A DNA stretch of 41,023 bases. Source: a virus (taxonomy: Duplodnaviria > Heunggongvirae > Uroviricota > Caudoviricetes). Made by a program: the position numbers and the translations under genes. The notes below the pieces were generated by a model. It was not told the origin of the DNA. It saw only the letters and a list, made by a program, of their open reading frames with translations, and ran no database searches. Position 1 is the first letter of the stretch. Each line of letters opens with the position of its first letter. The stretch covers positions 1 to 41,023 of IMG/VR virus record IMGVR_UViG_2690316062_000001. One strand, given 5' to 3'. Below, piece by piece: positions 22,515 to 41,023 of the stretch.

Positions 22515-23558
22515 ATGAAAATTAACAAGATATTATCATCTGCAACACTATTGTATGGTATGTCAATGGCCATGTCGGTCGGGAGTTGTGCAACACCTGT
22601 CCAGACTAATCTTCCTGGTTACACCCCGGGTGCAGATATCATTAGTGTTTCACCGACCAGAAACCAGGTCGATCTCATTGGTGATGTTGTTTATTCCCAG
22701 ATAAAAGGAACTCGTTCTGTCAGACAGCTTCACATGTCAGTTCTTGTCCCACGAACAAATGATTTAAAACCAGCCATTATTTATTATCCCGGCGGCGGAT
22801 TCATGTCTTCTGAACATGACAAATTTATTGAAATGAGAATGGCTCTGGCTGAAGCTGGTTTTGTTGTGGCCGCTGTAGAATACAGAACAATTCCTGATAC
22901 ATTTCCAGCACCAGTTGAGGATGGGAAAGCTGCAATACGTTACTTGAGATAACATGCCAGCGATTATGGGATTGATCCTCAAAGAATCGGAGTTCTGGGT
23001 GACTCTGCCGGTGGATGGCTTGCCCAGATGATGGGAACTACAAATGGTGACAAAACCTTTGATAAAGGTGACTTTCTTCAGCAATCAGCAGATGTTCAGG
23101 CAGTTGCCACACTTTATGGGATTTCTGACTTGTTGAATATTGGCGAGGGGTTCCCTGAATCTGTGCAGGAGGTTCATCGATCTCCTGCCGTAACCGAAGC
23201 CTTAATGATCAATGGCCCTGCATTCAGAAGTTTTGCGGGAGCCCCCATAACAGCGTCAAAAGAAAAAGCGCTAAACGCCAGTCCAATCGGACATATGAAA
23301 GGAGTAAAACCCCCATTTCTTATTATGCATGGTAGCAAAGACACTCTGGTTTCACCTGAGCAAAGCGCCAAACTATTCAGGATGTTGAAGAAGAACGGCG
23401 ATAACGCTGAGTACGTTCTGGTAGAAGGGGCTGAGCATGGCGATAATACATGGTATCAGCCAATTATTATAAACAGAGTTGTTGAGTGGTTTACTAAAAA
23501 CCTGGGAACCCCAATAAAAACCGCTACCCAACAACAAAAAACAAACGCTGACCTGTAA
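22515..23558 (+). pseudogene. Alpha/beta-hydrolase esterase/lipase (GDSAG type) interrupted by in-frame TAA
   Basis: ORFs 22515-22952 and 23028-23558 are in the same frame; TAA at 22950-22952; the YYPGGGF oxyanion motif is upstream and the GDSAGG nucleophile elbow lies between the stop and the next Met. Confidence 0.7.
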
Positions 23559-23952: not shown

Positions 23953-24395
23953 ATATTCTTTCCTGTTCAAACTGGAGAGAATTGTACTACAGTTTGAACT
24001 CAACTCATCTGTTTCATCATTGTGTACCCATTGATGTTCTTTTATATACCCTCAATACCCGTTTCATCGCGGCACTCTGGCGACACTCCTTAAAAATCAG
24101 GTTCGTGCTCACCTTTCCTGCCCGTTCTCCCCGGGTAGCAAACCGATAATACACCGTTCGCCAGTCCTTACTATCAATGACCAAGATTCCTGCCCATATC
24201 ATTTTAGCCGCAGCCTAATTTATGCTGGTTATTGTTACGTGTGAATTCAGTTAGCTGCATAAATTGTCACGGAAGTGATACATCGATATTATCGAGAAAT
24301 TCACTCGAATTTATACGATTGAAACTGCACTTATATCTGTTTTAAATACTCCGAACACTCTTTACAACAACTGTGTGAAAATGGAGATAATTAAA

Positions 24396-25124
24396 ATGAA
24401 AAAGGGTTTGGCTATTTCATTCATTGCCGCCGTGTGTGCATTTGCTGCAAATGCGAGTGCTGAGGAAAGTAAAAACGGGTTTTATCTAACCGGTAAAGCC
24501 GGTGCCTCTGTGGCGTCGTTATCAGACCAGCGTTTTCAGTATGATGAAGGCGATTGGTCAACTGGATTTAAGGGCAGCAACAACCATGACACGGCGTTTA
24601 GTGGTGGTATCGCAGCGGGTTATGACTTTTACCCACAGTTCAGTATTCCTGTTCGTACGGAGCTTGAATTTTATGCCCGCGGAAAGGCTGATACAGAATA
24701 CAATCTTTTTAAGGACGACTGGGTGCGAGCTGACATGAAGAATGAGGTGTCAGTCAACAGCCTGATGTTGAACGCGTACTATGACTTCCGGAACGACAGC
24801 GCATTCACCCCTTGGGTGTCCGCAGGGATTGGTTATGCAAGAATTCATCAGAAATCAACGGGTGTCATCACCTTCGATAATGGATACGGATACAGTGACC
24901 GCGCATCTGATTCCCGTTCAGATTCTTCTGATAACTTCGCATGGAGCCTTGGTGCTGGCGTCCGCTATGACGTAACTCCAGATGTCAGTCTGGACATCAG
25001 TTATCGCTACCTGGATGCAGGTGATGCCAATGTGACTTATACCGATGATTGGGGCGATAAATATAAATCAGATGTTGATGTAAAAAGTCATGACATTATG
25101 CTTGGTGTAACCTATAACTTCTGA
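24396..25124 (+). CDS. Outer-membrane beta-barrel protein (Ail/Lom/PagC-like)
   Basis: Start chosen at the second Met with GGAGA 9 nt upstream; signal peptide MKKGLAISFIAAVCAFAANASA; alternating aromatic/hydrophilic strands; C-terminal ...GVTYNF. Confidence 0.7.
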   Translation: MKKGLAISFIAAVCAFAANASAEESKNGFYLTGKAGASVASLSDQRFQYDEGDWSTGFKGSNNHDTAFSGGIAAGYDFYPQFSIPVRTELEFYARGKADTEYNLFKDDWVRADMKNEVSVNSLMLNAYYDFRNDSAFTPWVSAGIGYARIHQKSTGVITFDNGYGYSDRASDSRSDSSDNFAWSLGAGVRYDVTPDVSLDISYRYLDAGDANVTYTDDWGDKYKSDVDVKSHDIMLGVTYNF

Positions 25125-25605: not shown

Positions 25606-26307
25606 TCATACACTTGCTCCTTTCAGCCCAAACTTAGCTTTGATTTCTGCGATCTTCGCCAGAGCCTGTGCACGATTTAGAGGTCTACCGCCCATGACAG
25701 GAAGTTGTTTTACTGGTTCAGGTATCGCCTCACCACGGTTAATTCGCGCGGTCATACAGGTCAGCTCATCGGCAGCTTTACGCCGTAATTCCGCGTCAGT
25801 CAGCGCATTGGCCCGCATGTTCTGGTACAGATTGGTAACCAACCAGTAGTGCGCGTTTGATTTCCATGGATAAGACTCTGCGTCCGGATACAGGCCACGC
25901 TTCCGGCAATACTCGTAAACCATATCAACCAGCTCGCTGGCGTTTGGCAGCCCGGCGGTAACGGATGCTTCTTCACGGCACCAGGCAACAAACTGCCCGG
26001 GTGATGGCAGGAATGGTCGATTCTGCCGACGGGCTACGCGCATTCCAGCGTTAACCTGTTCCATCGTGGTGATCCCATTTTCCCGGAAAGCCAGAACCCA
26101 CTGGCGGCGGATTTCGTTCAGTTCGTTCTGGTCCCGGTTAGCCAGGCTCGCCGGGAAAGTTGCCAGTAACTGGCTGAACACACCATTGATAATCTGCGCT
26201 ACCTGCTGTACCTGCGGCTTTTCGTCGTACTGTTCCGGCATGTTATTGGCGATCCGACGCATCTGCTCACGGTCAAAGTTAATCATCTGTGCGGCGATGT
26301 TTTTCAT
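25606..26307 (-). CDS. P: Replication protein P (DnaB helicase loader)
   Basis: 233-aa ORF MKNIAAQMINFDREQMRRIANNMPEQYDEKPQVQQVAQIINGVFSQLLATF..., recalled as near-identical to lambda P. Confidence 0.9.
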   Translation of the reverse strand: MKNIAAQMINFDREQMRRIANNMPEQYDEKPQVQQVAQIINGVFSQLLATFPASLANRDQNELNEIRRQWVLAFRENGITTMEQVNAGMRVARRQNRPFLPSPGQFVAWCREEASVTAGLPNASELVDMVYEYCRKRGLYPDAESYPWKSNAHYWLVTNLYQNMRANALTDAELRRKAADELTCMTARINRGEAIPEPVKQLPVMGGRPLNRAQALAKIAEIKAKFGLKGASV

Positions 26308-27233
26308 AGATCCACCCCGTAAATCCAGTCTGTGTTTGTCAGGTCGAGTTTTGGTTTTCCGGCTGTCACGCCAGCCTGTTGTTTGTTACGGTTGATTTCG
26401 AGTTGGGTCCACTTGTCGCGAAGTTTGGCCGGGCTCAGCACGTTACCGGACCAGAAGTTGTCCTGGCATGCCCAGCGGAAAAGCACGCACATGTCGCGGT
26501 GGTTACGTCCGTCACGTTCACGCATCAGGCGGATATCGTTAGCCCACCCTGCAAAATTCGGTTTTCTGGCTGATGGTGCGATGGTCTTCACCATGTCAAA
26601 CATCCACTCTGCGGCGGTCAGGTCTTCTGCTGTCCCCCACTTGCTGCCGCTCTGAATTGCAGCATCTGGTTTCACCACAGGAAGATCGTTTTCTGGTTGG
26701 TCAGAGGATTCGCCAGAATTCTCGGACGAAAAAGGTTTTATATTGTCTTTTGTTAGTTTGTCTTTTGTGTTTACCTGATTCGGGTAAACGCCTTTACCTG
26801 ATTTGGGTAAACTTTTCTTACCTGATTCAGGTAAATTTACCTCTTTCAGGTAAACTTTATTTTTCTTACCTGATTCGGGTAATGTTGACCATTCACTGAC
26901 CACATTATTAATACCGATATTCCGCCCGCTCTGAATCAAAATCCCACGCTTTACCAGAACACTTTTTGCAGCAGAACACTTGTGCGGTAATATCCCGGTC
27001 AATCCGGACAGTTGCTCGTTGCTCACCCAATCCAGTTTTTTATTAAAGCCATATGTTTTGCGCATGACAGCCAGGAAGACCAGAAGCTGGTGCTGTGTTA
27101 ATCCGGCCAGCATCACAGCTTCCAGCAACTCATTTGCAATGCGCGTATAACCATCATCGAGATCTGCCACGCGCGGCTCCTTTTGTGCCGCATCCGGCAC
27201 TGGAAAATTGAATATCTCAGCAGTGTTTGCCAT
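26304..27233 (-). CDS. O: Replication initiator O
   Basis: Start set at MANTAEIFNF with GGGAGG 5 nt upstream; ADLDDGY motif; iteron array inside the gene; ATGA overlap with P. Confidence 0.8.
   Translation of the reverse strand: MANTAEIFNFPVPDAAQKEPRVADLDDGYTRIANELLEAVMLAGLTQHQLLVFLAVMRKTYGFNKKLDWVSNEQLSGLTGILPHKCSAAKSVLVKRGILIQSGRNIGINNVVSEWSTLPESGKKNKVYLKEVNLPESGKKSLPKSGKGVYPNQVNTKDKLTKDNIKPFSSENSGESSDQPENDLPVVKPDAAIQSGSKWGTAEDLTAAEWMFDMVKTIAPSARKPNFAGWANDIRLMRERDGRNHRDMCVLFRWACQDNFWSGNVLSPAKLRDKWTQLEINRNKQQAGVTAGKPKLDLTNTDWIYGVDL
26781..26894. repeat. Replication origin iterons (5 copies of about 19 bp TTACCTGATTCGGGTAAAC)
   Basis: Copies at 26781-26799, 26804-26822, 26828-26846, 26847-26865, 26876-26894, each internally palindromic (TTACC...GGTAA), inside the O gene as in lambda ori. 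Confidence 0.75.
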
Positions 27234-27319
27234 AATTCCTCCCGCAATGAGTGTGTTACGATTTGCACCTGAAAGTCGGTTCTGTTCCAGCAGACCGGCT
27301 TTCGCCATTTCTGAACCTG

Positions 27320-27865
27320 TCATATCGCCCCCAGCATGGTAGTAACCATCGCCATCAATGGACCAGCCAGATCTGGGTCCACACGAAACATCGATACAAT
27401 ACCTTCACTAATTTCCTTCAGTTTCTGGTGGCGTGGTGCGTTGAGAATGACAGCCTGTTTTGCCTCACTGAGTTCCTTTTCCATTTCAGCCAACCTAGCC
27501 ATGAAGCTATCCTGCTCAACCAGGTAACCGCGATATTCCAGCGGTAGTACCGCCAGAATTGCCGGGGTCAGTTCACGCACGTTATTTCGGTATTTTTCAG
27601 AATCGAATTTGTTATCGAGGAAGCGGAACAGCTTCTGGCGTGCACGGCTGACATCATCAGGGAAATCGATGGTGCCGCCGCCCTGCTCCCGATACTCATT
27701 CACAATGAGTGTGGCAACGACATCCTGATTATCTACAGCCGACCAGGCGCGGACGGCATCACGGATTTTTTCGTGGCCTGCCACCTGTTTTGTTTGAGAA
27801 CGATTTATCACCGCAGTCGGGCTAAATCCGCTAGTCTGTTGGTATGTAAGTGGTTGCATAGTCAT
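27320..27865 (-). CDS. YdaT-like regulatory protein (cII position)
   Basis: 181-aa ORF between cro-like gene and O; motifs NEYREQGGG and ILAVLPLEYR resemble recalled Rac YdaT. Confidence 0.5.
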   Translation of the reverse strand: MTMQPLTYQQTSGFSPTAVINRSQTKQVAGHEKIRDAVRAWSAVDNQDVVATLIVNEYREQGGGTIDFPDDVSRARQKLFRFLDNKFDSEKYRNNVRELTPAILAVLPLEYRGYLVEQDSFMARLAEMEKELSEAKQAVILNAPRHQKLKEISEGIVSMFRVDPDLAGPLMAMVTTMLGAI

Positions 27866-27889
27866 TGCCTTATCAGTTAACGCCGCAGT

Positions 27890-28117
27890 TTAGGCGGCAG
27901 AATTACTCGCGTTAAACAATGGTGCGAGGTCGGGACGAATATCTGCTGGTTTAATCTTTCCACCAGTGGCTGAGACAATTTTCATTACATAGCGGGCATC
28001 AATTCCGCCACCGTGTAGCCAACGCCAAACTGTGGGTTGGGCTACACCGCATAGATCTGCCAGTCGTTTTTGACTGCCTGTAATACTGATTGCGAGTTGA
28101 ATGGTTTGATTTGTCAT
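27890..28117 (-). CDS. Cro/YdaS-like HTH repressor
   Basis: Start at ATG preceded by AGGA; HTH QKRLADLCGVAQPTVWRWL; divergent from cI. Confidence 0.6.
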   Translation of the reverse strand: MTNQTIQLAISITGSQKRLADLCGVAQPTVWRWLHGGGIDARYVMKIVSATGGKIKPADIRPDLAPLFNASNSAA

Positions 28118-28151
28118 TATCAATTCCTATTGGTATTGCAATGAATGAATA

Positions 28152-28180
28152 ATAGCAATGCGTATTAATCCAAGCAATAG
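28152..28180 (-). promoter_or_regulatory. PR-like promoter for the cro/replication operon
   Basis: Minus strand TTGCTT-17 nt-TATTAT upstream of the cro-like gene; overlaps AGCAATAGCAA operator-like motif. Confidence 0.45.
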
Positions 28181-28191
28181 CAAAACGTGTT

Positions 28192-28220
28192 TTGACCATC
28201 AATACGCAAGCGTATAAATT
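28192..28220 (+). promoter_or_regulatory. PRM-like promoter for cI (near-leaderless)
   Basis: TTGACC then 15-17 nt then TATAAA/TAAATT; expected start lies within a few nt of the cI ATG at 28228. Confidence 0.4.
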
Positions 28221-28227
28221 AAAACTT

Positions 28228-28920
28228 ATGAAAAAAGAAACTCTTGCTGATCGCTTAAATCTAGCGATGGAACAATCTGGAATGTCTCAAGGCGCTCTTG
28301 CAAAGGCGTCTGGCGTAGCTCAACCCACAATCTGGAGACTGACAAGCGGCAACGCGCGCGGCTCAACAAAAATTGTTGAAATAGCTAATGCATTGGGTGT
28401 TCGAACAGAATGGCTCTCTTCAGGCATAGGCCCGATGAGAAATGACGGTCAACAATCAGGGAAGCCTGCTGTCAGCCATTCCAAATACTTCAAAATTGAC
28501 GTTCTTGATATAGAAGTCAGTGCCGGGCCGGGTGTAATCAACCGTGAGTTTGTAGAAGTTCTACGCTCGGTTGAATACTCGTTTGACGATGCTCGTCACA
28601 TGTTCGATGGCAGGAAGGCGGAAAATATCCGCATCATTAACGTGCGTGGTGACAGCATGTCAGGAACGATCGAACCAGGTGATCTGCTGTTCGTTGATAT
28701 CACGGTTAAATCTTTCGACGGTGATGGTATCTATGCGTTTCTGTATGACGACACCGCCCATGTAAAACGCCTGCAAATGATGAAGGATAAGCTGCTGGTT
28801 ATCTCTGATAACAAGAGCTACTCACCGTGGGACCCGATCGAGAAAGACGAGATGAACCGCGTGTTCATCTTCGGGAAAGTCATCGGGAGCATGCCGCAGA
28901 CATATAGAAAGCATGGGTAG
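28228..28920 (+). CDS. CI-type repressor (HTH plus S24 LexA-like autopeptidase)
   Basis: N-terminal HTH QGALAKASGVAQPTIWRL; C-terminal GDSMSGTIEPGDLLFVD (Ser) and HVKRL (Lys) catalytic dyad. Confidence 0.85.
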   Translation: MKKETLADRLNLAMEQSGMSQGALAKASGVAQPTIWRLTSGNARGSTKIVEIANALGVRTEWLSSGIGPMRNDGQQSGKPAVSHSKYFKIDVLDIEVSAGPGVINREFVEVLRSVEYSFDDARHMFDGRKAENIRIINVRGDSMSGTIEPGDLLFVDITVKSFDGDGIYAFLYDDTAHVKRLQMMKDKLLVISDNKSYSPWDPIEKDEMNRVFIFGKVIGSMPQTYRKHG

Positions 28921-29004
28921 AAATCAGAACAAAATTATGCACTTCGCTTTTCAGCTTACTGTAGTAAGGCAATAAATTAGGCTTGACGTTAGCTATCAGG
29001 TGCA

Positions 29005-29019
29005 CAACAATAATTGTTG
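29005..29019. promoter_or_regulatory. Perfect 15-bp palindrome CAACAATAATTGTTG upstream of cassette
   Basis: Read directly; lies 31 nt upstream of the 29050 ATG, after a TTGACG -35-like hexamer at 28983-28988. Confidence 0.4.
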
Positions 29020-29049
29020 AATAATAGGTTTTTTTAACTAGGTGATAAC

Positions 29050-30189
29050 ATGGCAGCGGTTGAATTTCAATTGTCTAGGAAGATGATTGATTGGATAGCA
29101 AATTCTCAAGGAGTTTCTATCGAAACTCTTGCTGACCAAGTCATGCCCAAAAAGATTAATAAATTTCTTAACGGAGTGGTAAGTAAATCCGCAGCAGAAA
29201 AACTGGCAAAAATTGGAGGAATCCCTTTCGGTTTTTTATTTCTTGAAACGCCACCAACTCCAGCCAAACCCAAGATCCCTGACTTAAGGCAAGCTATAAA
29301 TAGCCGTGAGTTAGGAAAAGATTTTTTTGATGTTTACTATGATATAGAATATAAACTTGAGTGGTACAAAGACTATTTAAGAGAAAATGGTAATGATGAT
29401 CCACTCGATTTTATTGGTAAATTTAAATTTAATAGAAAATTAAATTATAAGGTTGTTGCTACAGACATAGCAAACACAATACATTTTGATATACAAAAAG
29501 AGATAAAAAATGTCACTTTTGAGAGCTATTTTTCTAAAGTGGCAAAATTAATAGAAGACACTGGCGTATTAGTTTTCAAGAATGGTGTTGTGGGTAATAA
29601 TAATAAAAGAAAACTTGACACGCGAGAGTTTCGTGGTTTCTGTATATCTGATAGCGTTGCTCCGATCATTTTTGTAAATAGCTCGGACGCGTTATCTGCG
29701 CAGGTATTTACATTATTTCATGAGGTGGCTCATCTTTGGCTTGGAGTCGATGGAGTCTCTGGGTGGGACACAGAAAAAAACATAGAATCTTTTTGTAATA
29801 AAGTTGCTGCTGAAATCTTAATGCCTGATAATCTCTTCAAATCTTTCTGGCTTAATGCATCCAGCGATAATAATTATTATCGAGTAAAAGAGGTTTCTAA
29901 GTTATTTAAGGTTAGTGATTTCGCTTGTGCAATCAAAGCGTTACAATTAGATTTGATAGAAAGAAACACTTTGGAGATAATTAAAGATCAAGCTTACAAT
30001 AAGCCCAAAAAAGAATCTAATGGTGGTTCTTTCTTTAACACATTACCTGTTCGTAACAGTCCAAAACTTACGAATATAATAATTTCCAAAGCAATGTCTC
30101 AACAATTACCATTAAGGGAAGCAGGCGTACTGCTAAATGTAAAAGCAGATACAGTTGTTGAATTTTATAAAAAACGAGAATCTCTATGA
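29050..30189 (+). CDS. HTH domain fused to ImmA/IrrE-family zinc metallopeptidase (COG2856)
   Basis: AGGTGA RBS; N-terminal HTH-like segment; HEVAHLWLG (HExxH) followed by VAAEILMP, the ImmA/IrrE signature; strongly AT-rich. Confidence 0.8.
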   Translation: MAAVEFQLSRKMIDWIANSQGVSIETLADQVMPKKINKFLNGVVSKSAAEKLAKIGGIPFGFLFLETPPTPAKPKIPDLRQAINSRELGKDFFDVYYDIEYKLEWYKDYLRENGNDDPLDFIGKFKFNRKLNYKVVATDIANTIHFDIQKEIKNVTFESYFSKVAKLIEDTGVLVFKNGVVGNNNKRKLDTREFRGFCISDSVAPIIFVNSSDALSAQVFTLFHEVAHLWLGVDGVSGWDTEKNIESFCNKVAAEILMPDNLFKSFWLNASSDNNYYRVKEVSKLFKVSDFACAIKALQLDLIERNTLEIIKDQAYNKPKKESNGGSFFNTLPVRNSPKLTNIIISKAMSQQLPLREAGVLLNVKADTVVEFYKKRESL

Positions 30190-30698
30190 TTCATAATGGA
30201 AAATTCTTAATTGATAGTAATGTCTTCATAGAGGCAAAAAACTTTGCATATAACTTCAATTATTGCAAAATATTTTGGGATTTTCTTCTCGCTTTACACA
30301 TTAATGGTCTGATTTATAGCATTAATGCTGTAAAAAAAGAACTATGTGCAAAAGATGATCCATTGTGTAAATGGATTAAAGAAGAGTTACCATCATCATT
30401 CTTCGAAGATGAGCATAGTTCAATAGAAAATTATGCAAAGTTAATAAATTGGTCAACTAAATTAGATGTTACCGAAAAGGCAAAGTTTGATTTTGCAAGC
30501 CATGAAAAAGCAGATGCTTTTTTAATAGCCCATGCGATGACACATGGATATACTATTATTACCCATGAGAAACCATCCGGTGGCAAACCTAAAAAAAGAA
30601 TAATGATCCCGGATGCTGCTGCTTCTCACGGCGTTAAGACATTAACACTATATGAATTTCTTCCAAGATACGCTAGTCATAATTTTTCTTTGAAATAA
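30186..30698 (+). CDS. PIN-like nuclease domain protein (DUF4411 family)
   Basis: ATGA start/stop overlap with upstream gene; N-terminal FLIDSNVFIEAKN PIN-like strand with Asp; further acidic residues spaced as in PIN folds; ...IAHAMTHGYTIITHE. Confidence 0.7.
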   Translation: MIHNGKFLIDSNVFIEAKNFAYNFNYCKIFWDFLLALHINGLIYSINAVKKELCAKDDPLCKWIKEELPSSFFEDEHSSIENYAKLINWSTKLDVTEKAKFDFASHEKADAFLIAHAMTHGYTIITHEKPSGGKPKKRIMIPDAAASHGVKTLTLYEFLPRYASHNFSLK

Positions 30699-30703
30699 AA
30701 CGT

Positions 30704-30730
30704 CCCGGCCACCGTGCCGGGTTTTCTTTT
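30704..30730 (+). terminator. Rho-independent terminator ending the cI-cassette operon
   Basis: CCCGGC-caccgt-GCCGGG followed by TTTTCTTTT, 6 nt after the stop at 30698. Confidence 0.7.
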
Positions 30731-30860
30731 GCCTCCCCTCATCACACACACCGTTCAAAAAACCACCACAACCCCGCTTCAGTTATCGCTATGCGATGCA
30801 AGTCACAAAATTAATTCTTTTTGCTATCAAATATTTAATATCAAAACACATCTAGCAATA

Positions 30861-30889
30861 GCAATAAGTATTGATATCATCAATAGCAA
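30861..30889 (+). promoter_or_regulatory. PL-like promoter with operator-like repeats
   Basis: TTGATA-17 nt-TATTAT; spacer and flank carry AGCAATAGCAATA / CAATAGCAATAGC, the same motif as in the cro-cI intergenic region. Confidence 0.45.
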
Positions 30890-31176
30890 TAGCTATTATC
30901 ACCATGTCGCAACAACACAACGATACGGCAATCACCTGATTCACCGTTGCGATGACCGCTTAGATCCGCAGCTTGAATTTCAGCAGGCTCCGGGGAGTGC
31001 GAGGGGTGAAGCGGACGCGTGAACGTCGGTGTGACCAGCTGAAATCAACTCAACACTTCATACCTTAGTCGCTTCAACGAGGCGGCTTAGTTATGACAAC
31101 CGGCGGCCATCCACCGCCTGAATACGCGCAGAAGTCTCTATATGTTCAGCAGCCCAGCTTACGGGCAGGAGTTTTT

Positions 31177-31383
31177 ATGGTTCATCAACATTACGGAACG
31201 CAGACCGTTAATCGCGGCGCGGTCATGCCAGGAATGCTGGTCAAACACAAAGATGGTACCTGGACTGCATCAGCTAATTTACGCGGACGGCTTTATCTGC
31301 ATCGCGGCATCGAGCGCACTTATACCCGTGATTTGCTCGTGGAAGTTTTTCTCGACGGACGCGGTAACGGCCTGAATCACTAA
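31177..31383 (+). CDS. Hypothetical early protein (kil/cIII position)
   Basis: 68-codon ORF starting at ATG with CAGGAG 7 nt upstream (MVHQHYGTQTVNRGAV...); the longer 31093 start lacks an RBS. Confidence 0.35.
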   Translation: MVHQHYGTQTVNRGAVMPGMLVKHKDGTWTASANLRGRLYLHRGIERTYTRDLLVEVFLDGRGNGLNH

Positions 31384-31459
31384 CCCCCCTTTCCTGTTTT
31401 CCTAATCAGCCTGGCATTTCGCGGGCGCTATTTTCACAGCCATTTTCAGGAGTTCAGCC

Positions 31460-31756
31460 ATGAACGCTTATTACATTCAGGATCGTCTTGAGGCTCAGAG
31501 CTGGGCGCGTCACTACCAGCAGATCGCCCGTGAAGAGAAAGAGGCAGAACTGGCAGACGACATGGAAAAAGGCCTACCCCAGCATTTGTTTGAATCGCTC
31601 TGCATCGATCATTTACAACGCTGCGGGGCCAGCAAAAAAGCCATTACCCGTGCATTTGATGACGATGTTGAGTTTCAGGAGCGCATGGCAGAACACATCC
31701 GGTACATGGTTGAAACCATTGCTCACCATCAGGTTGATATTGATTCAGAGGTATAA
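31460..31756 (+). CDS. gam: Gam, RecBCD inhibitor (short GamS-length form)
   Basis: 98-aa [63 protein letters not shown]..., recalled as near-identical to lambda GamS. Confidence 0.9.
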
Positions 31757-31761
31757 AACGG

Positions 31762-32547
31762 ATGAGTACAGCACTCGCAACGCTGGCTGGGAAGCTGGCT
31801 GAACGTGTCGGCATGGATTCTGTCGACCCACAGGAACTGATCACCACTCTTCGCCAGACGGCATTTAAAGGTGATGCCAGCGATGCGCAGTTCATCGCAT
31901 TGTTGATCGTCGCCAACCAGTACGGCCTTAATCCGTGGACGAAAGAAATTTACGCCTTCCCTGATAAGCAGAACGGCATCGTTCCGGTGGTGGGCGTTGA
32001 TGGCTGGTCCCGCATCATCAATGAAAACCAGCAGTTTGATGGTATGGACTTTGAGCAGGACAATGAATCCTGCACATGCCGGATTTACCGCAAGGACCGC
32101 AATCATCCGATCTGCGTTACCGAGTGGATGGATGAATGCCGCCGCGAACCATTCAAAACCCGCGAAGGCAGAGAAATCACCGGACCGTGGCAGTCGCATC
32201 CCAAACGGATGTTACGTCATAAAGCCATGATTCAGTGTGCCCGTCTGGCCTTCGGATTTGCTGGTATCTATGACAAGGATGAAGCCGAGCGCATTGTCGA
32301 AAATACCGCATACACTGCAGAACGTCAGCCGGAACGCGACATCACTCCGGTTAACGATGAAACCATGCAGGAGATTAACACTCTGCTGATCGCCCTGGAT
32401 AAAACATGGGATGACGACTTATTGCCGCTCTGTTCCCAGATATTTCGCCGCGACATTCGCGCATCGTCAGAACTGACACAGGCCGAAGCAGTGAAAGCTC
32501 TTGGATTCCTGAAACAGAAAGCCACTGAGCAGAAGGTGGCAGCATGA
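31762..32547 (+). CDS. bet: Bet (Red-beta) single-strand annealing protein
   Basis: 261-aa [69 protein letters not shown]..., matches recalled lambda Bet. Confidence 0.95.
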
Positions 32548-33224
32548 CACCGGACATTATCCTGCAGCGTACCGGGATCGACGTAAGAGCTGTCGAACAG
32601 GGGGATGATGCATGGCACAAATTACGGCTCGGCGTCATCACCGCTTCAGAAGTTCACAACGTGATAGCAAAGCCCCGCTCAGGAAAGAAGTGGCCTGACA
32701 TGAAAATGTCCTACTTCCACACCCTGCTGGCTGAGGTTTGCACCGGTGTGGCTCCGGAAGTTAATGCTAAGGCGCTGGCATGGGGAAAACAGTACGAGAA
32801 CGACGCCAGAACCCTGTTTGAGTTCACTTCCGGCGTGAATGTTATTGAATCCCCGATCATCTATCGCGACGAAAGTATGCGTACCGCCTGCTCTCCCGAT
32901 GGTTTATGCAGTGACGGCAATGGCCTTGAGCTGAAATGCCCGTTTACCTCCCGGGATTTCATGAAGTTCCGGCTCGGTGGTTTCGAGGCCATAAAGTCGG
33001 CTTACATGGCCCAGGTGCAGTACAGCATGTGGGTGACACGAAAAGATGCCTGGTACTTTGCCAACTATGACCCGCGTATGAAGCGTGAAGGACTGCATTA
33101 TGTCGTGGTTGAGCGGGATGAAAAGTACATGGCGAGTTTTGACGAGATGGTGCCGGAGTTCATCGAAAAAATGGACGAGGCACTGGCTGAAATTGGTTTT
33201 GTATTTGGGGAGCAATGGCGATGA
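32544..33224 (+). CDS. exo: Exo (lambda exonuclease)
   Basis: 226-aa [47 protein letters not shown]..., matches recalled lambda Exo; ATGA overlap with bet. Confidence 0.95.
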
Positions 33225-33403
33225 CGCATCCTCACGATAATATCCGCGTAGGCACGATCACTTTCGTCTACTCCGTTACGAAGCGAGGCTGGGTATTTCC
33301 CGGCCTTTCTGTTATCCGAAATCCCCTGAAAGCACAGCGGCTGGCTGAGGAGATAAATAATAAACGGGGAGCTGTATGCACAAAGCTTCTCCCGTTGAGT
33401 TAA
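33215..33403 (+). CDS. Hypothetical protein
   Basis: 62-aa ORF overlapping the exo stop; no recognisable motif. Confidence 0.3.
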
Positions 33404-33567
33404 GAACGAGTATCGAGATGGCACATAGCCTCGCTCAAATTGGAGTCAGGTTTGTGCCAATACCAGTAGAAACAGACGAAGAATTTCATACGTTAGCCGC
33501 ATCCCTTTCACAAAAGCTGGAAATGATGGTGGCGAAAGCAGAAGCAGATGAGAGAGACCAGGTATGA
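33376..33567 (+). CDS. Hypothetical protein (lambda b-region orf63-like)
   Basis: 63-aa acidic [26 protein letters not shown]... Confidence 0.45.
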   Translation: MHKASPVELRTSIEMAHSLAQIGVRFVPIPVETDEEFHTLAASLSQKLEMMVAKAEADERDQV

Positions 33568-33647
33568 CAACCACTGAATGCATTTTTCTGGCAGCGGGCT
33601 TCATATTCTGTGTGCTTATGCTTGCCGACATGGGGCTTGTTCAATGA
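33564..33647 (+). CDS. Candidate small hydrophobic peptide (27 aa)
   Basis: MTTTECIFLAAGFIFCVLMLADMGLVQ; ATGA-type overlaps at both ends (with 33376-33567 and 33644-33859). Confidence 0.25.
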   Translation: MTTTECIFLAAGFIFCVLMLADMGLVQ

Positions 33648-33859
33648 CACCTCAGCAAGAAAACGCCCTTCGCAGCATTGCCCGTCAGGCTAATTCTGAA
33701 ATCAAAAAAGCCAGACAGCAGTTTCCGGATAATAACGTCGATGACATTTGCCGTAGCGTACTAAAGAAGCACCGCGAAACGGTAATGCTGATGGGATTCA
33801 CACCGACTCATTTAAGCCTGGCGATCGGCATGTTGAACGGCGTCTTTAAGGAACGGTGA
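33644..33859 (+). CDS. Hypothetical protein
   Basis: Start at internal Met MTPQQENALRSIARQ... of the 33578 ORF, overlapping the small-peptide stop. Confidence 0.4.
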   Translation: MTPQQENALRSIARQANSEIKKARQQFPDNNVDDICRSVLKKHRETVMLMGFTPTHLSLAIGMLNGVFKER

Positions 33860-33957
33860 ACATGAAAAGCAAAATCATCAGGGAGCTACAGGCTCCTTTT
33901 TTATTATTCGCATTTACCCTCAAGCGTATTAACCAACAATTCAGGGATTAATGAAAG

Positions 33958-34176
33958 ATGGCAGACATCATTGATTCAGCATCAGAAATCGAAGAATTAC
34001 AGCGCAATACAGCAATAAAAATGCGTCGTCTGAACTACCAGACTGTATCCGCAACTCATTGTTGTGAGTGTGGCGATCCGATAGATGAGCGAAGACGCCT
34101 GGCTGTTCAGGGTTGTCGGACTTGTGCGAGTTGCCAGGAGGAGATCGAACTTAAGAACAAACAATGGGGACTGTGA
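33958..34176 (+). CDS. TraR/DksA-family C4 zinc-finger protein
   Basis: 72-aa ORF with CxxC...CxxC (CCECGDPIDERRRLAVQGCRTCASC). Confidence 0.75.
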   Translation: MADIIDSASEIEELQRNTAIKMRRLNYQTVSATHCCECGDPIDERRRLAVQGCRTCASCQEEIELKNKQWGL

Positions 34177-34223
34177 TGGCCTCAAAGCAGCAAATTTCAA
34201 CATCGTCCAACTGAGGTGTAAAA

Positions 34224-34502
34224 ATGTTCAGAATCATTTTTCCTAACACCTGGTACGTCGACCACCACGGCACTCCCTGCAAAATCCTGCGTTCTACCCA
34301 CAACAAAGTTCACTACATCCGAAAAGGCAGAACATGTATCGCCAGCATGTTCCGCTTTAATCATGACTTTGAACCTGTGAATAAAGCTGATGCAGATCGG
34401 ATAGCAGAAGAGATCGAAACGGCAGAACACATTAAGAAGTTACGTGACATGCGTTCAAAAAGCAGAGGTAACCATGGAATCATACAGCCTCACACTCGAT
34501 GA
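34224..34502 (+). CDS. Hypothetical protein
   Basis: 92-aa ORF upstream of xis; basic. Confidence 0.35.
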   Translation: MFRIIFPNTWYVDHHGTPCKILRSTHNKVHYIRKGRTCIASMFRFNHDFEPVNKADADRIAEEIETAEHIKKLRDMRSKSRGNHGIIQPHTR

Positions 34503-34824
34503 GGCCTGTCAGTTTCTTAAGATATCCAGACCAACCGCCACCAACTGGATACGAACAGGCCGCCTACAGGCAACACGCAAAGACCCCACTAAACTAAAAT
34601 CTCCTTACCTCACAACACGACAAGCCTGCATTGCGGCGCTTCAGTCTCCGCTGCATACTGTCCAGGTGAGCGCGGGTGATGGCATAACAGAGGAAAGAAA
34701 ATGTCACTCTTCCGCAGAGGTGAAATATGGTACGCCAGTTTCACATTGCCGAACGGTAAAAGATTTAAACAGTCTCTTGGAACAAAGGACAAAAGGCAGG
34801 CGACAGAGCTCCATGACAAGCTAA
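34474..34824 (+). CDS. xis: Excisionase (P22 Xis-like)
   Basis: 116-aa product from [32 protein letters not shown] (HTH); overlaps the int start by about 120 nt. Confidence 0.65.
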
Positions 34825-35864
34825 AGGCTGAAGCATGGCGGGTCAGCAAACTTGGTGAAATACCTGATATGACGTTCGAGGAGGCGTGTATCAGGTGGCT
34901 CGAAGAGAAAGCACATAAAAAATCACTGGACGATGACAAAAGCCGGATCGGATTCTGGCTTCAACATTTCGCAGGAATGCAACTAAGAGACATTACTGAA
35001 TCAAAAATTTATTCAGCAATGCAGAAAATGACGAACCGGCGTCATGAGGAAAACTGGAAACTCAGGGCAGAAGCATGCAGAAAAAAAGGGAAACCAGTTC
35101 CAGAATACACGCCAAAACCAGCGTCCGTTGCAACGAAGGCTACGCATCTTTCATTTATAAAGGCCCTGCTAAGAGCCGCAGAGCGTGAATGGAAAATGCT
35201 GGATAAGGCACCAATTATTAAAGTGCCTCAACCAAAGAATAAACGGATCCGCTGGCTGGAGCCCCATGAAGCACAAAGGCTGATTGATGAATGTCCGGAG
35301 CCATTAAAGTCTGTTGTTGAATTTGCACTGGCAACAGGCTTAAGACGCTCGAACATCATCAACCTTGAATGGCAACAAATAGATATGCAGCGCCGGGTGG
35401 CATGGATAAACCCGGAAGAGAGTAAATCAAACCGCGCAATTGGCGTTGCGCTGAATGATACTGCATGTCGCGTATTGAAAAAACAAATCGGGAATCATCA
35501 CCGTTGGGTATTTGTGTACAAGGAAAGCTGTACCAAACCAGACGGAACGAAAGCGCCAACAGTAAGGAAGATGCGGTATGACGCAAACACAGCCTGGAAA
35601 GCAGCGCTGAGACGGGCTGGTATTGATGATTTCAGATTTCACGACTTGAGACACACCTGGGCAAGTTGGCTGGTTCAAGCCGGAGTCCCGTTGTCAGTGT
35701 TACAGGAAATGGGAGGCTGGGAGTCTATCGAAATGGTTCGTCGATATGCTCACCTTGCACCTAATCACCTTACCGAACACGCACGGCAAATAGACTCGAT
35801 CCTGAACCCATCGGTCCCAAATTCGTCCCAGTCAAAAAATAAGGAAGGTACTAATGATGTGTAA
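34701..35864 (+). CDS. int: Tyrosine integrase (P22/DLP12 Int-like)
   Basis: 387-aa [45 protein letters not shown]...; catalytic-domain motifs ...[10 protein letters not shown]...RYAHL; stop 16 bp from the att core. Confidence 0.9.
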
Positions 35865-35880
35865 CTTATTGATTTAAATG

Positions 35881-35928
35881 GTGCCGATAATAGGAGTCGA
35901 ACCTACGACCTTCGCATTACGAATGCGA
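35881..35928 (-). other. att core: 48-bp copy of the 3' end of tRNA-Thr(CGU) (thrW-type), not a complete tRNA
   Basis: Reverse complement GCATTCGTAATGCGAAGGTCGTAGGTTCGACTCCTATTATCGGCACC corresponds to anticodon loop (CGT), T-arm and acceptor 3' strand of tRNA-Thr; flanking sequence on the 5' side does not continue the tRNA. Confidence 0.7.
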
Positions 35929-36012
35929 AGTTTTTATATTTTAACTGCTTGAACAACCATCAGAAATCACAAATTTATCATTTTAAATCATAATATTAAA
36001 ACAAAAAACCTG

Positions 36013-36038
36013 TTGATGTAAATTGATGAGTGTTGATG
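36013..36038. repeat. Three TTGATG repeats phased at 10 bp upstream of second integrase
   Basis: TTGATG at 36013, 36023, 36033; similar GTTGAT / ATCAAC copies at 37416-37447 after the gene. Confidence 0.4.
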
Positions 36039-36110
36039 TTTATCCTTTCAATTTACTTACACCAGCCGTTACATTACTGTAAACCGTAATCCCCAACAGG
36101 AACCCTAAAA

Positions 36111-37430
36111 ATGGCGCTTTCAAGACAAAAACTAACCTTCGAACGAATTCGAAGATTTACTTTACCTGAAGGGAAAAACCAAGTTTTCCTTTGGGATACG
36201 GACGTAACAAGCTTGGCATGTCGAGCAACTCGTGGAGCAAAAGCCTTTGTATTCCAAAGCCTGTATGCGGGAAAAACCCTTCGCATGACCATTGGCAACA
36301 TTAACGATTGGAGGATTGATGATGCGAGGGCCGAAGCCAGGCGACTGCAAACATTAATCGATACTGGGATAGATCCGCGTATAGCTAAGGCGGAAAAAAT
36401 TGCTGAAGCGGAATCACAGCAGGCTGAATCTCGTAAAACGAAGGCAACCTTTTCAAGCGCTTGGGAAGATTATCTTGATGAATTGAGAACCGGAATCAGC
36501 GCAAAAACTAAACGCCCCTACTCTGCACGCTACATTGCCGATCACGTTAACTTGTCCAGTCGTGGAGGCGAAAGTAAAAAAAGAGGCCGGGGCCCAACCT
36601 CACCTGGGCCACTGGCTAGCCTGCTCGACCGACCATTATCAGAACTAACACCAGAGAACATTGCCGAATGGCTAAGTACAGAGAGACAAAATCGGCCTAC
36701 CGTCACTGCTCATGCCTACCGTCTGTTGCGTGCATTCATCAAATGGGCTAATTACCAGAAAAAATATCAGGGAATAATCCATGGCGATCTTGCACAAGAT
36801 CATAACGTGAGAAAAATGGTTCCAATATCAGCGAGCAAAGCGGGAGATTGCTTACAAAAAGAACAGCTCAAAAGCTGGTTCAGTGCCGTGCGTAGCCTCA
36901 ATAATCCCATTGCATCAGCCTATCTCCAAGTGCTTTTGCTCACCGGTGCACGGCGTGAAGAAATTTCCTCACTTCGCTGGTCTGACATAGATTTCAAATG
37001 GTCAAGCATGCGAATTAAAGACAAGATCGAAGGCGAGCGAATTATCCCCCTCACTCCCTATGTTTCTGACTTGTTACGCTCACTGATGGAGATCCCCAAT
37101 CGTGGTACAAACGAGGAGAATTGGGTTTTCAGAAGTAACAGCAAAAGTGGCAAAATTATTGAACCGCGTTCAGCACATAATAGAGCATTAACTCGCGCGG
37201 AGTTACCACATATCAGCTTGCACGGATTGCGCCGTAGTTTTGGGACCCTCGCTGAATGGGTCGAAGTACCAACAGGTATTGTTGCGCAGATTATGGGCCA
37301 TAAGCCTAGCGCTCTTGCTGAAAAGCACTATCGCCGCCGTCCATTAGATTTGCTAAGAAAATGGCATGAAAAAGTTGAATTATGGATCTTAGAAGAAGCA
37401 AAAATAAAAAACAACGTTGATAAGCGTTGA
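36111..37430 (+). CDS. Tyrosine integrase of second element (P4-type)
   Basis: 439-aa ORF; C-terminal LHGLRRSFGTLAEW...IMGHKPSALAEKHYRRR catalytic motifs (R, HxxR, Y). Confidence 0.85.
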   Translation: MALSRQKLTFERIRRFTLPEGKNQVFLWDTDVTSLACRATRGAKAFVFQSLYAGKTLRMTIGNINDWRIDDARAEARRLQTLIDTGIDPRIAKAEKIAEAESQQAESRKTKATFSSAWEDYLDELRTGISAKTKRPYSARYIADHVNLSSRGGESKKRGRGPTSPGPLASLLDRPLSELTPENIAEWLSTERQNRPTVTAHAYRLLRAFIKWANYQKKYQGIIHGDLAQDHNVRKMVPISASKAGDCLQKEQLKSWFSAVRSLNNPIASAYLQVLLLTGARREEISSLRWSDIDFKWSSMRIKDKIEGERIIPLTPYVSDLLRSLMEIPNRGTNEENWVFRSNSKSGKIIEPRSAHNRALTRAELPHISLHGLRRSFGTLAEWVEVPTGIVAQIMGHKPSALAEKHYRRRPLDLLRKWHEKVELWILEEAKIKNNVDKR

Positions 37431-37966
37431 TTTTATCAAATATCAACAACTTACATAAAATCACATGTGTTGACAGAAATTTTTTTTCAGTTATCTTTTA
37501 TTACTGCTAACTACATTCACTCACTAAGCAGGAGATTAACTACAGTGACTAACCCAATAACTGTATCAAGAGAAGACCGAAGTGCGGAAATCAGAGCGAG
37601 ATGGGGTTTACATCCGACTAAAAACAAAAGTTCTAATTTTTGGGAAACAACAATTCAGCGTTTTAATAATAGTAGTACTGACCGAATACTACCTCTTTGG
37701 CACCGTGTTTCAAAACTTTTAGTTGCTATTAGGAATGTAGTCAATACTATAACATGCCCTTTTCCACCAAAGGGGAATACTTCCCGCTCACGCCGAAGTT
37801 CAACAACGTCATCAAAAAACTCATCATCATCTTCATCGGATGGTAGTAGTAGCGACCCCGATCCCGATAGAGACCCCATATTCACCCCTTTTCATTTCAT
37901 TCTTTCATCTCTGTTAAAAACAATGATCGTCTTATTTGCCCACATATCAAATGTTGGGGTGATGAA

Positions 37967-38188
37967 ATGAGCGATATCAAACATCAAAAACCCTCTCAGT
38001 CACAACTAATTTCTACCCGCGAGTTAGCTAATATTATTGGCTATGAAGTACAAACTATTCGAGCTTGGCTTTGCAAAGACAAACTGCCTAATGGTTTACC
38101 GCGACCGAAGAAAATTAAAAACCGACATTATTGGTCACGTAAAGACATTGATAGATACCTATTAACCTTCTCAGTATATAGTAACTAA
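37967..38188 (+). CDS. AlpA/excisionase-like HTH DNA-binding protein
   Basis: 73-aa ORF LISTRELANIIGYEVQTIRAWL...; followed by perfect hairpin CCGGCTATTC-taaa-GAATAGCCGG at 38201-38224. Confidence 0.5.
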   Translation: MSDIKHQKPSQSQLISTRELANIIGYEVQTIRAWLCKDKLPNGLPRPKKIKNRHYWSRKDIDRYLLTFSVYSN

Positions 38189-38310
38189 TAGAGGCCTCCC
38201 CCGGCTATTCTAAAGAATAGCCGGGTTAGTTAATACAAACCTTCCATTAACAATGGGGGGAGATTAATACTATTTATCACATCTCACATTAACAAAATTC
38301 AAGGTCACAT

Positions 38311-39075
38311 ATGAAAAAACGCATCACTTTCAGCGTAAACAATAGTTCTACTATTGATGCAATTGACGACTATAGCAATGCAAAAGGATACTCCAGGTCA
38401 GAGGTGATATCATTTTTATTAAACGCCACAGTCCCAGCATTGAATAAAATAACATCGCAATATCATATAGCTCAAACTTTGGAGTCAACATTAGGCTGTA
38501 TTTTTGAAGAGAAGGCCCCGTCAATAGCACGGGGGGAGCCAAAATTAACTTACGAAGAGTTTTTTCATTCCGTCTGGAACACTCACATTCGACACCGGAA
38601 CGAGGTTATCGACCAGAATTTTTATGCACACAAAATATCTCATGATAAGATGGGGAAGAGTGAAAAAAAATTAATTCATGAAAAGCTCACATACATTATA
38701 AAAAGCTTCAATGTAAAAAAAGCAATTTTTATTTACACAGATCGGCGCGTGAACCACAAACATCTAATTGCAGGAGGGTTGTCAAATATCATACTGATAA
38801 AGGAAACAGTTTACGATGGTTGTTTTTTTGATTTGAGCAGCATTGTGATTATGCCAATCTTTGAACTTATTACATTTGGAATTGAAGAGGTATTGAAAAG
38901 AAATAAAATCCACCATAAACAATCATGCTATTGCTGGATACCAATTTATTACACAAATGATCTAGCGGTAATGGTCCCGGTGATTGCCGAAGGCGATACA
39001 CCTCAAAAGGCGATGAAAGGAGGAGATGCCATCATTATTAACCCCTTTAACGGTGAAGTAAACCATACTTTCTGA
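38311..39075 (+). CDS. Ribbon-helix-helix (CopG-like) N-terminus fused to about 200-aa domain of unknown function
   Basis: MKKRITFSVNNSSTIDAIDDYSNAKGYSRSEVISFLL is an RHH-type beta-strand/helix motif; the remainder has no motif I recognise; AT-rich. Confidence 0.5.
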   Translation: MKKRITFSVNNSSTIDAIDDYSNAKGYSRSEVISFLLNATVPALNKITSQYHIAQTLESTLGCIFEEKAPSIARGEPKLTYEEFFHSVWNTHIRHRNEVIDQNFYAHKISHDKMGKSEKKLIHEKLTYIIKSFNVKKAIFIYTDRRVNHKHLIAGGLSNIILIKETVYDGCFFDLSSIVIMPIFELITFGIEEVLKRNKIHHKQSCYCWIPIYYTNDLAVMVPVIAEGDTPQKAMKGGDAIIINPFNGEVNHTF

Positions 39076-39157
39076 TACCAATGTTAAGCATAACCACTTA
39101 GTTGCATACATCTCGACAGTATGGAGTTAGTACCTAATAGCTTGATGAGGGTAAAAG

Positions 39158-39334
39158 ATGCCTACTAACAAAGCAAAATCAAAGAAAATTCTAGGAAGGC
39201 CTGAAGGAAGTAAATATTACCATTTAATTCAGAGTGAGAAGGCTAAGCATTACTCTCAATCCAAGGTGGCAAAGATCTTAGGAATAAGTATTTCCACGGT
39301 AAAAAGACACTGGGATAACGGCATCTTTGGGTGA
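39158..39334 (+). CDS. Small HTH protein (uncertain)
   Basis: 58-codon ORF MPTNKAKSKKILGRPEGSKYYHLIQSEKAKHYSQSKVAKILGISISTVKRHWDNGIFG; below the ORF-track cutoff. Confidence 0.35.
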   Translation: MPTNKAKSKKILGRPEGSKYYHLIQSEKAKHYSQSKVAKILGISISTVKRHWDNGIFG

Positions 39335-39537
39335 TTATAATTGCAGAGTTGCTTTTTAAGTATTTTACTGCATGGGTAATGGGTTGATAACAAGTTTTAT
39401 TGTTGGAAAGGTATTATATAACAGTCATTACTATTAATAGTTAATTAATATAAATAACCACAGACATTCATCTATGTCTTATCATATTACTATATACGGC
39501 TTTAGAAAACCGTAGAACTAACTACAAGGGTATACAT

Positions 39538-40158
39538 ATGGAATTATATCATGGTTCCCATGGTGAGCATGTACTCGCCTATAGAAAGCATATTGAGCGA
39601 GTCGTTAATGATGCTGTCAGTGAATTCCCTAGAACAATGGCATTACGTGTTGATGCCCATTACCCCCCTATTTTAGATAGAGGTGATACGGTTTGCTGCT
39701 TTCCTAATCTAGAGCCTGGTGCCATATCCCGTTTCCGTAATGCATTAAATGCCATGTTGGAGGCCAATGAGAGAGCCAGAGCCGCCAACGGTAAAAGAAT
39801 ATATTCAAATCGTGTTCGTCATGTTTGGGTAAGGGAGTTTTCCGAAGAGGGGAAATGTCATTTTCATCTTGGTCTTTTTTTTAACAAAGATGCTTATTAC
39901 CATTTAGGTGATTATGAGGCTGAAAGCAATTTACGGATGATGATTGTAAGGGCATGGTACAGTGCCCTGGGGTTGGAACTGGATGATTATCCGGGATTAG
40001 TTCACTACCCTGAAAATTGTCGTTATATATTAGACGTCAATGATTTTAACTTTGAAGGAGAATACAATAAATTACTGAATCGCTTCGACTACCTAGCTAA
40101 ACTCGATACAAAAGCATATGGAGATGGCGACCGTAGCTTCGGCTGCAGTCGCGGTTAA
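39538..40158 (+). CDS. Inovirus Gp2-family protein (YagK/YfjJ-like)
   Basis: 206-aa ORF MELYHGSHGEHVLAYRKHIERVVNDAVSEF..., resembles recalled CP4-type island proteins. Confidence 0.6.
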   Translation: MELYHGSHGEHVLAYRKHIERVVNDAVSEFPRTMALRVDAHYPPILDRGDTVCCFPNLEPGAISRFRNALNAMLEANERARAANGKRIYSNRVRHVWVREFSEEGKCHFHLGLFFNKDAYYHLGDYEAESNLRMMIVRAWYSALGLELDDYPGLVHYPENCRYILDVNDFNFEGEYNKLLNRFDYLAKLDTKAYGDGDRSFGCSRG

Positions 40159-40213
40159 TTTATTTTTTACAGCAATGGCCTTTCTTATAGATGGAAAGGC
40201 CAGACCTTATATA

Positions 40214-40936
40214 TCAAGACGATGGTGAGCGATAAAGTATTGTTTTCAAGTAATCATCTGTTGCAGTAAACTCAGGGAGTTGGCCACTCATGGCCTGTGT
40301 TAGTGGAATAATCTTTGTCCTGACTCCCATCCCCCTGAAATCAACGTAACCATAATCACGTAAGACTTCCATAATAATCGTATTACGTGGTGAACGCTGA
40401 CCTGCAACCATCTTTTCAACCGACATCGAATTATTCAGTGCCCCTGGGCTAATAACTTCAAATCGATTGCTATACAAGCCAATCTCTATCTCAACAAAGC
40501 GTGTCCAGTCACGATGAGCCAGTGCATTTACAACAGTTTCGCGAATAGCTTCCAGTGGATAGTACCAGGTTGTTTCACGACGTAGATGCGTATCGGGTAG
40601 AGGAGCCTCTGAAGTGATAAAGGGCATGATAGTCGACATCAAACGCTCAATCAATCCACCATCGATCAAAGCCTTTCCGGCTTCCTCAGTATCAAAACGC
40701 CCAACCATTGGACCATCCAGAATATCATCGAGTAACGGTTGGTACTCCTTATCCTCGCTGGCAAACGCAAAGACTCGGATACCTGATTGACGTAAATACT
40801 GGCGTGGATGTTTACCGAAGAGCACCAACCCGGCAATTGTACAACAGACATTTTCACCCGCTTGTGTCAGAAAACTTAATCCTAACAACCGTTGTTGCCA
40901 TTGTTCCTGAGTCTCAGGAATATCAGGATCACGCAA
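40214..40936 (-). CDS. AlbA_2 / RecG-C-terminal-like putative DNA-binding regulator (5' end unresolved at window edge)
   Basis: 240 codons from a TTG; motif VVNALAHRDW; in-frame TGA at 41012-41014 and an ATG in another frame at 41019 suggest a frameshift or a start outside the window. Confidence 0.5.
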   Translation of the reverse strand: MRDPDIPETQEQWQQRLLGLSFLTQAGENVCCTIAGLVLFGKHPRQYLRQSGIRVFAFASEDKEYQPLLDDILDGPMVGRFDTEEAGKALIDGGLIERLMSTIMPFITSEAPLPDTHLRRETTWYYPLEAIRETVVNALAHRDWTRFVEIEIGLYSNRFEVISPGALNNSMSVEKMVAGQRSPRNTIIMEVLRDYGYVDFRGMGVRTKIIPLTQAMSGQLPEFTATDDYLKTILYRSPSS

Positions 40937-41023
40937 AATATCACGCAGATAATTCAGTAAACGTGCGGCTTTGTTGAATAAATCGAACTTTTGCTGAGTT
41001 GAAGGATCAGATCACGCATCCTC

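Follow-up and report, generated by a model that had tools for sequence, protein, structure and literature searches.

How does part of a tRNA-Thr gene come to lie between two integrase genes that read in the same direction? The question was raised by the initial annotation of a 41,023-nucleotide stretch of tailed-virus DNA (the window), which placed the junction of two tandem integrative elements at this point. Comparison of the sequence with phage, island and genome sequences indicated that the site is very probably the inner junction of a tandem array, in which two site-specific integrative elements occupy the tRNA-Thr(CGU) gene thrW beside proBA.

Alignment with the Escherichia coli thrW gene confirmed that the fragment corresponds to a tRNA 3' end. 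The minus strand of window positions 35879-35927 matched thrW nt 28-76 exactly; the plus strand of this 49-nt core reads TGGTGCCGATAATAGGAGTCGAACCTACGACCTTCGCATTACGAATGCG, the reverse complement of that part of tRNA-Thr(CGU). The copy had previously been given as 48 bp at 35881-35928, so its existence stood and its limits moved by 1-2 nt. In tRNA terms the core begins in the 5' strand of the anticodon stem and extends through CCA, and identity with thrW was exact over 49 nt and ended abruptly at thrW nt 28. The core was present as a single copy within the window, where a search allowing up to three mismatches returned no second copy and a scan for direct repeats returned just short families at chance level. 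No core copies were recovered from dinucleotide shuffles of the sequence (0/100).

The two integrase ORFs that flank the core, referred to here as int1 and int2, are both on the plus strand. The stop codon of int1 is at 35864, which leaves a gap of 14 nt to the core instead of the 16 reported, and the proximity of the prophage integrase to the core was thereby upheld with a corrected distance. The int2 gene starts at 36111, 183 nt past the core, as expected from the earlier figure of about 180 bp. The description of the integrases as unrelated was borne out, since there was no significant similarity between them (best BLASTP E = 0.24), yet the PF00589 domain was found in both. Beyond 36 kb the G+C content of the window was 36-46%, so that the term AT-rich island was correct.

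To the left of the core lies the right-hand part, approximately 36 kb, of a lambdoid, SfV-like prophage (1-35878), the left end of which is beyond the window. Its tail is of the myovirus type, its head of the HK97 type and its early region lambda-like. Positions 1-25000 were 97-98.6% identical, over more than 85% of their length, to prophages in 71 complete E. coli genomes, in which tail sheath, tape measure, portal and terminase genes are annotated, and the early region was approximately 96-97% identical to lambdoid phages. An Xis gene (34444-34824, plus strand; 96.6% identity over 116 aa to the SfII xis region by tblastn) overlaps the start of int1, and the same xis/int overlap is annotated in SfII. 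The int1 gene (34701-35864, plus strand; 387 aa) encodes a thrW-specific integrase of the P22/Sf family, with 99.2% identity to the integrases of SfIV and SfII, 99.0% to that of SfI and 98.2% to that of SfV; identity to the P22-group phages ST64T, L and BTP1 was approximately 90%. The integration target of the Sf phages is thrW, which lies downstream of proA (PMC3306764). The prophage left of the core would probably be excisable.

Between the end of int1 and the core, the phage attachment arm (P', 35840-35878) was identical to SfII attP, and in the alignment with the SfII genome this identity extended through arm and core from 35840 to 35924. The SfII attP matches thrW for 46 nt only; past the sequence CGAAT its own P arm begins. 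Positions 35879-35924 of the core are thus common to the phage attP, and the last three core nucleotides, GCG (35925-35927), recurred only in thrW and the CP4-6-type repeat and were missing from the phage attP.

Other features of the prophage were recorded. A two-gene insert of low G+C content (34-36%) at 29050-30698 (plus strand), located between a cI-like repressor gene (28192-28920) and recombination genes, encodes an M78/IrrE-like peptidase of 379 aa and a DUF4411 protein of 170 aa. The peptidase had weak PADLOC matches to capP and RmrA, which suggest that the insert may be a defence or toxin-antitoxin-like moron. Within a prophage stretch of 43-45% G+C, an alpha/beta-hydrolase gene (BD-FAE/esterase; 22515-23558, plus strand) was present as two adjoining ORFs, which points to a frameshift or stop, and was followed by a gene for a 249-aa outer-membrane beta-barrel protein of the Lom/Ail type (24375-25124, plus strand).

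To the right of the core, positions 35928-36110 constitute the attachment arm of the second element (P) together with the intF leader, and were homologous to the stretch between the repeat and intF in CP4-6 of E. coli K-12. Over the 45 nt read past the core, this arm was identical in ECONIH4, Z142-1 and loci L008-L015, L017 and L018, and had one mismatch in L016. The int2 gene (36111-37430, plus strand; 439 aa, PF13356 (Arm-DNA-bind_3) and PF00589) reads into the island and encodes an IntF orthologue, 89% identical to K-12 IntF over the whole 439 aa. The exact protein was found in 274 blocks of the public assembly collection.

The order and orientation of the island genes were those of K-12 intF-ykgV-yagM-yagK, as determined by tblastn. 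In the position of K-12 yagN there is a plus-strand ORF of 167 aa (37467-37970) without detectable yagN similarity, which had no Pfam or PADLOC match and no tblastn match to K-12 CP4-6; yagL is present as a 58-aa remnant. The following genes, all on the plus strand, encode a YkgV-like small helix-turn-helix protein of the AlpA/HTH_17 type (37967-38188; PF12728, 66% identity to K-12 YkgV), a YagM-like protein (38311-39075; 31% over 247 aa to K-12 YagM, E = 7e-39) and a YagK/YfjJ-family protein (39538-40158; PF11726, E = 1.5e-51, 55% identity to K-12 YagK). The YkgV-like protein is a candidate excisionase or regulator. The last gene, on the minus strand (40214-40936), is island cargo encoding a protein with an HATPase_c_4 domain (PF13749), which is annotated as an ATP-binding protein in ECONIH4 and Z142-1. 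These results show that the second element is a relative of CP4-6 and belongs to a known thrW island family rather than an unfamiliar one. In the literature searched, nothing specific to IntF or to CP4-6 excision was found.

Homologues of int2 in ECONIH4, Z142-1 and MS6192 (L001 21337-22731, L003 20165-21559 and L008 6159-7553) carry a pseudogene annotation that cites an internal stop. Those gene models begin 25 codons further upstream, as K-12 IntF does, and the corresponding leader of the window (36036-36110) contains an in-frame TAA at 36087-36089. No such interruption affects the ORF that begins at the ATG at 36111 (MALSRQK...), which can be aligned with K-12 IntF from residue 26 onward; the pseudogene annotation is probably an artefact. 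Upstream of int2, the island arm contains a direct repeat of GTTGATGT, at 36011-36018 and 36032-36039, 21 nt apart. In the K-12 arm, GTTGATTG and GTTGATGT are kept at the matching positions, and these repeats are candidates for IntF arm-type sites or intF promoter elements.

In K-12, CP4-6 is annotated at 262898-297205 (NC_000913.3), starting at thrW nt 28, and a 49-nt repeat follows at 297206-297254, approximately 110 nt from the annotated intF start. The layout is thrW, then yagK-yagM-ykgV-yagN-intF, a stretch of approximately 110 nt and the 49-nt repeat. Similarity was also seen outside the core: the 18 nt past the tRNA 3' end are alike in the phage arm (35861-35878, GTAACTTATTGATTTAAA) and in two flanks of the CP4-6 locus. 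The L004 counterparts are the K-12 chromosomal flank of the distal repeat (37256-37273, GTAACTCTTTGATTTTAA) and the CP4-6 proximal arm (2948-2965, GTAACAATTTGATTTTAA). The similarity of these attachment sites thus reaches, imperfectly, past the tRNA.

Since the left arm is the SfII attP arm, and the GCG together with the 183-nt right arm is that of a CP4-6-type distal end, the site is, as judged by these alignments, a hybrid that consists of the island P arm with intF reading inward, the 49-nt core, and the phage P' arm with int oriented toward the core. The claim that two integrative elements meet at the core was thereby confirmed. The 49-nt core is the exact boundary between the prophage and the CP4-6-family island, a result of value mainly for annotation, and it illustrates that a single site can combine the attachment arm of one element with the displaced core of another.

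The nature of a longer array was apparent in the relatives of the window, which were 98-99% identical to it at the junction. E. coli ECONIH4 carries the same junction at 99% identity. At 43.9 kb to the right of this junction there is an intact thrW adjoining proA-proB, and a third core copy of 46 nt (L007 15572-15617) lies 40.4 kb to the left, at the far end of the prophage. The inner flank of this left core is an SfII-type P arm; on the outer side is the K-12-type sequence found after thrW, which leads into ykfI-yafW. All three core copies are direct repeats, and the prophage is sandwiched between two islands. When window positions 26001-41023 were compared, the ECONIH4 prophage matched that of the window only from 34474 on; at least the early region differs, and the two are not the same phage throughout. 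An intact tRNA-Thr gene to the right and a further repeat, both of which had been anticipated, were thus found in the closest complete relative with the junction; the window itself holds neither an intact thrW nor a second core. By analogy, intact thrW would be expected beyond the island to the right of the window, with a further core a few kb past its left edge.

The opposite arrangement was found in 2022CK-00450. There, a prophage 98.6% identical to window positions 1-22250 lies directly at intact thrW-proA, its far end adjoins a CP4-6-type ykfI arm, and a core copy with the SfII P arm is present at L005 8478-8523. The two elements therefore occur in both orders. Among complete E. coli genomes the best matches to the window were 98-98.6% identical and covered the prophage or the island, not both.

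The neighbours of the island across the core were also variable. The exact int2 protein led to 10 loci. Across the core, the neighbours at loci with this protein included other prophages with 387-aa integrases, P4-like satellites, other islands and plain chromosome. In CP045064.2, identity was 100% over 35878-40518 and a P4-like satellite replaced the phage. Inner cores flanked by P4-like satellites were seen at L003 18648-19844 and at approximately 8400-9600 in L012, L013, L014 and L017. These satellites carry Psu, Ogr/Delta, AlpA and primase genes and have their own arm-type integrase approximately 160 nt from the core, which indicates that a third integrase family uses the thrW core. The thrW arrays of ECONIH4 (L007 1-4576) and Z142-1 (L003 1-2508) also include, a few kb beyond the elements studied, a heat-resistance locus with trx-GI, kefB-GI, psiE-GI, htpX and S1C protease genes.

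The junction would be explained as follows. The attP of either element includes a core that copies thrW from the anticodon stem-loop to the 3' end, over 46 nt in the phage and 49 nt in the island. Integration of either one would regenerate thrW at one end and leave a displaced core at the other, and a second element could then recombine with either of the two cores. We infer that the junction was made by a tyrosine-recombinase crossover inside the shared core. Placement of the crossover in the anticodon loop would follow from the end of sequence identity and from the Islander classification, in which core copies that start at the anticodon stem-loop form the anticodon-centred class (PMC4383910). 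The origin of tandem arrays has previously been attributed to the ability of a second element to use either of the regenerated cores (PMC7192596).

Two orders of arrival would suit this scheme. If the island had integrated first and the phage had then entered the island's distal core, the junction seen here would be obtained; if the phage had come first and the island had entered the regenerated thrW, an identical junction would result. Since both orders lead to the same sequence, the order of arrival is not readable from it, and none of the features examined (core length, the GCG triplet and the arms) discriminated between the two. The serial use of one tRNA site put forward in the initial annotation is consequently supported by both arms and the core, whichever element came first.

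The junction need not have arisen in the strain that now carries it. The whole thrW region, comprising island, core and prophage, may have been built elsewhere and acquired ready-made by homologous recombination after transduction or conjugation, in which case the junction would record site-specific events in another strain. The occurrence of a 99%-identical junction in ECONIH4 and seven other complete genomes is consistent with such a transfer, as are the 98-100% identity of the island segment across many genomes of differing size and context, and the mosaic make-up of the prophage from pieces of different strains. We regard this history as possible and rather less likely than integration in place. 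It would alter where the junction arose and not its nature, since the arms and the core would still be site-specific in origin.

A second alternative concerns the fragment itself, which might be a decayed or truncated tRNA-Thr gene that lost its 5' part by deletion or by insertion of the island, and not an attachment-site copy. In favour of decay, the Rfam tRNA model matched positions 35882-35954 end to end with 36.3 bits, above the gathering score of 29, and the arm faintly resembles the 5' half of a tRNA. The Rfam alignment showed that the score is drawn from the exact 3' part of the tRNA copy; in the 5' part there were two broken or non-standard acceptor pairs, a D arm made up of A and U only, and no conserved D-loop bases. 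ARAGORN detected no tRNA in the window. A functional tRNA gene at the site was ruled out by this negative result, by the acceptor and D-arm defects and by the end of identity at nt 28.

Decay of a former gene is likewise contradicted by the ARAGORN result, and more directly by the flanking sequence. The identity to thrW drops after nt 28, exactly where it does in the distal repeat of K-12 CP4-6, and the sequence past the core is homologous to the K-12 arm that leads to intF. The 45 nt beyond the core were identical in nine of the ten int2 loci, the exception being the single mismatch in L016, whatever the neighbour on the other side. Furthermore, ECONIH4, which has the same junction, has an intact thrW in the usual place beside proA. 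These findings largely refute the decay of a resident gene, to which we assign a very low probability. That the fragment is an att core and not a gene, as had been proposed from its containing only the 3' portion, is supported by SfII attP, which contains the same 46 nt, and by K-12 CP4-6, whose distal end has all 49. Insertion of the phage at a secondary, non-tRNA site resembling its core, with the thrW match being the phage's own attP, would account for the 46 of 49 nt present in that attP, and is refuted, with next to no probability left to it, by the GCG and the right arm, which are absent from the phage attP and present in island loci with no phage at the site, such as L010, L016, L018 and K-12, where the full core therefore exists independently of the phage.

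With the site read as the inner junction of an array at thrW, one further feature of the hybrid was noted. The plus strand at 35910-35940 is terminator-like, with CTTCGCATTACGAATGCGAAG followed by TTTTTATATT, that is, a 9-bp hairpin and a T-run. The hairpin is composed of the antisense anticodon stem and the first bases of the island arm, and begins 46 nt past the int1 stop. The immediate T-run is missing from the K-12 arm and from SfII attP. It is conceivable, and very doubtful, that the hybrid site is more than a scar and holds an intrinsic-terminator-like element that exists only where such an island arm meets the core. If so, the phage int transcripts would end 46-76 nt past the stop codon and intF would be shielded from read-through. 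The choice of core, intact thrW or the distal copy of the island, could then alter the fate of the int mRNA and the frequency of excision, loosely like sib for lambda int.

The frequency of the arrangement was determined in 5426 complete E. coli genomes. An int1-type integrase was found beside intact thrW-proA in 1266 of them. The window-type junction, counted where at least 80% of an 801-nt query was covered, was present in eight, including ECONIH4. These two figures are a rough measure of how seldom the phage ends up distal to the island. The reciprocal junction, in which the CP4-6 proximal arm, the core and the Sf P arm adjoin, was found in at least 12 of the 5426 genomes. Among species-representative genomes, the core-plus-island-arm pattern was found in one Enterobacteriaceae MAG contig, a single match that is uninformative as to distribution.

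The hotspot is well known, with thrW among the most used tDNA sites in E. coli (PMC7545054). At least three integrase types, those of the Sf/P22 phages, of IntF and, in related loci, of a P4-like satellite, use it, and the window adds one example. The finding opens no new question.

Compared with the integration module of the Sf and P22 phages, the prophage shares the integrase (98-99% identity for Sf, approximately 90% for the P22 group), Xis, the 46-nt core and the arm between int and core. The rest of the prophage differs from the Sf phages in being a mosaic with a lambda-like early region. In the usual Sf/P22-type site int adjoins a regenerated thrW, whereas int1 adjoins a displaced core that is flanked by another element. 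The Sf phages carry gtr genes across attP, and their counterparts in this prophage would fall at the end that is outside the window.

The island has the same target as CP4-6, thrW, and the same 49-nt core at its distal end. In both, the integrase gene is beside the distal repeat and reads inward, diverging from the repeat, with a homologous arm between them. The YkgV, YagK and YagM proteins have diverged (66%, 55% and 31% identity, respectively), and the cargo is different: relatives of the window island carry the sucrose (scr) regulon and other genes, whereas CP4-6 carries argF and xylonate genes. The distal repeat adjoins the chromosome (yagP) in K-12 and the prophage in the window.

The closest experimental precedent is the tandem integration of SfI and SfX at thrW in Shigella flexneri (PMC3306764). 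In these lysogens the two elements lie in series at proA-thrW, with an att copy at each end and one between, and the incoming phage used an att site of the resident. Both of those elements are phages with the same integrase type, whereas the window has unrelated integrases and cores of 46 and 49 nt. Arrays have also been catalogued, with 125 of two or more islands in the Islander collection, where every member must have an integrase gene and a tRNA fragment of its own, the latter oriented like the tRNA gene (PMC4383910). The window contains two integrases and one tRNA fragment, and ECONIH4 shows all of the features by which such arrays are defined. The Islander and TIGER arrays (PMC4383910, PMC7192596) have an integrase and a tRNA fragment for each member, an anticodon-centred crossover and diverse neighbours, and do not differ in any essential respect from the array described here. 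The arrangement is real, ordinary and well documented, and its parts, the Sf/P22 thrW module and the CP4-6/IntF island, belong to families that are already known.
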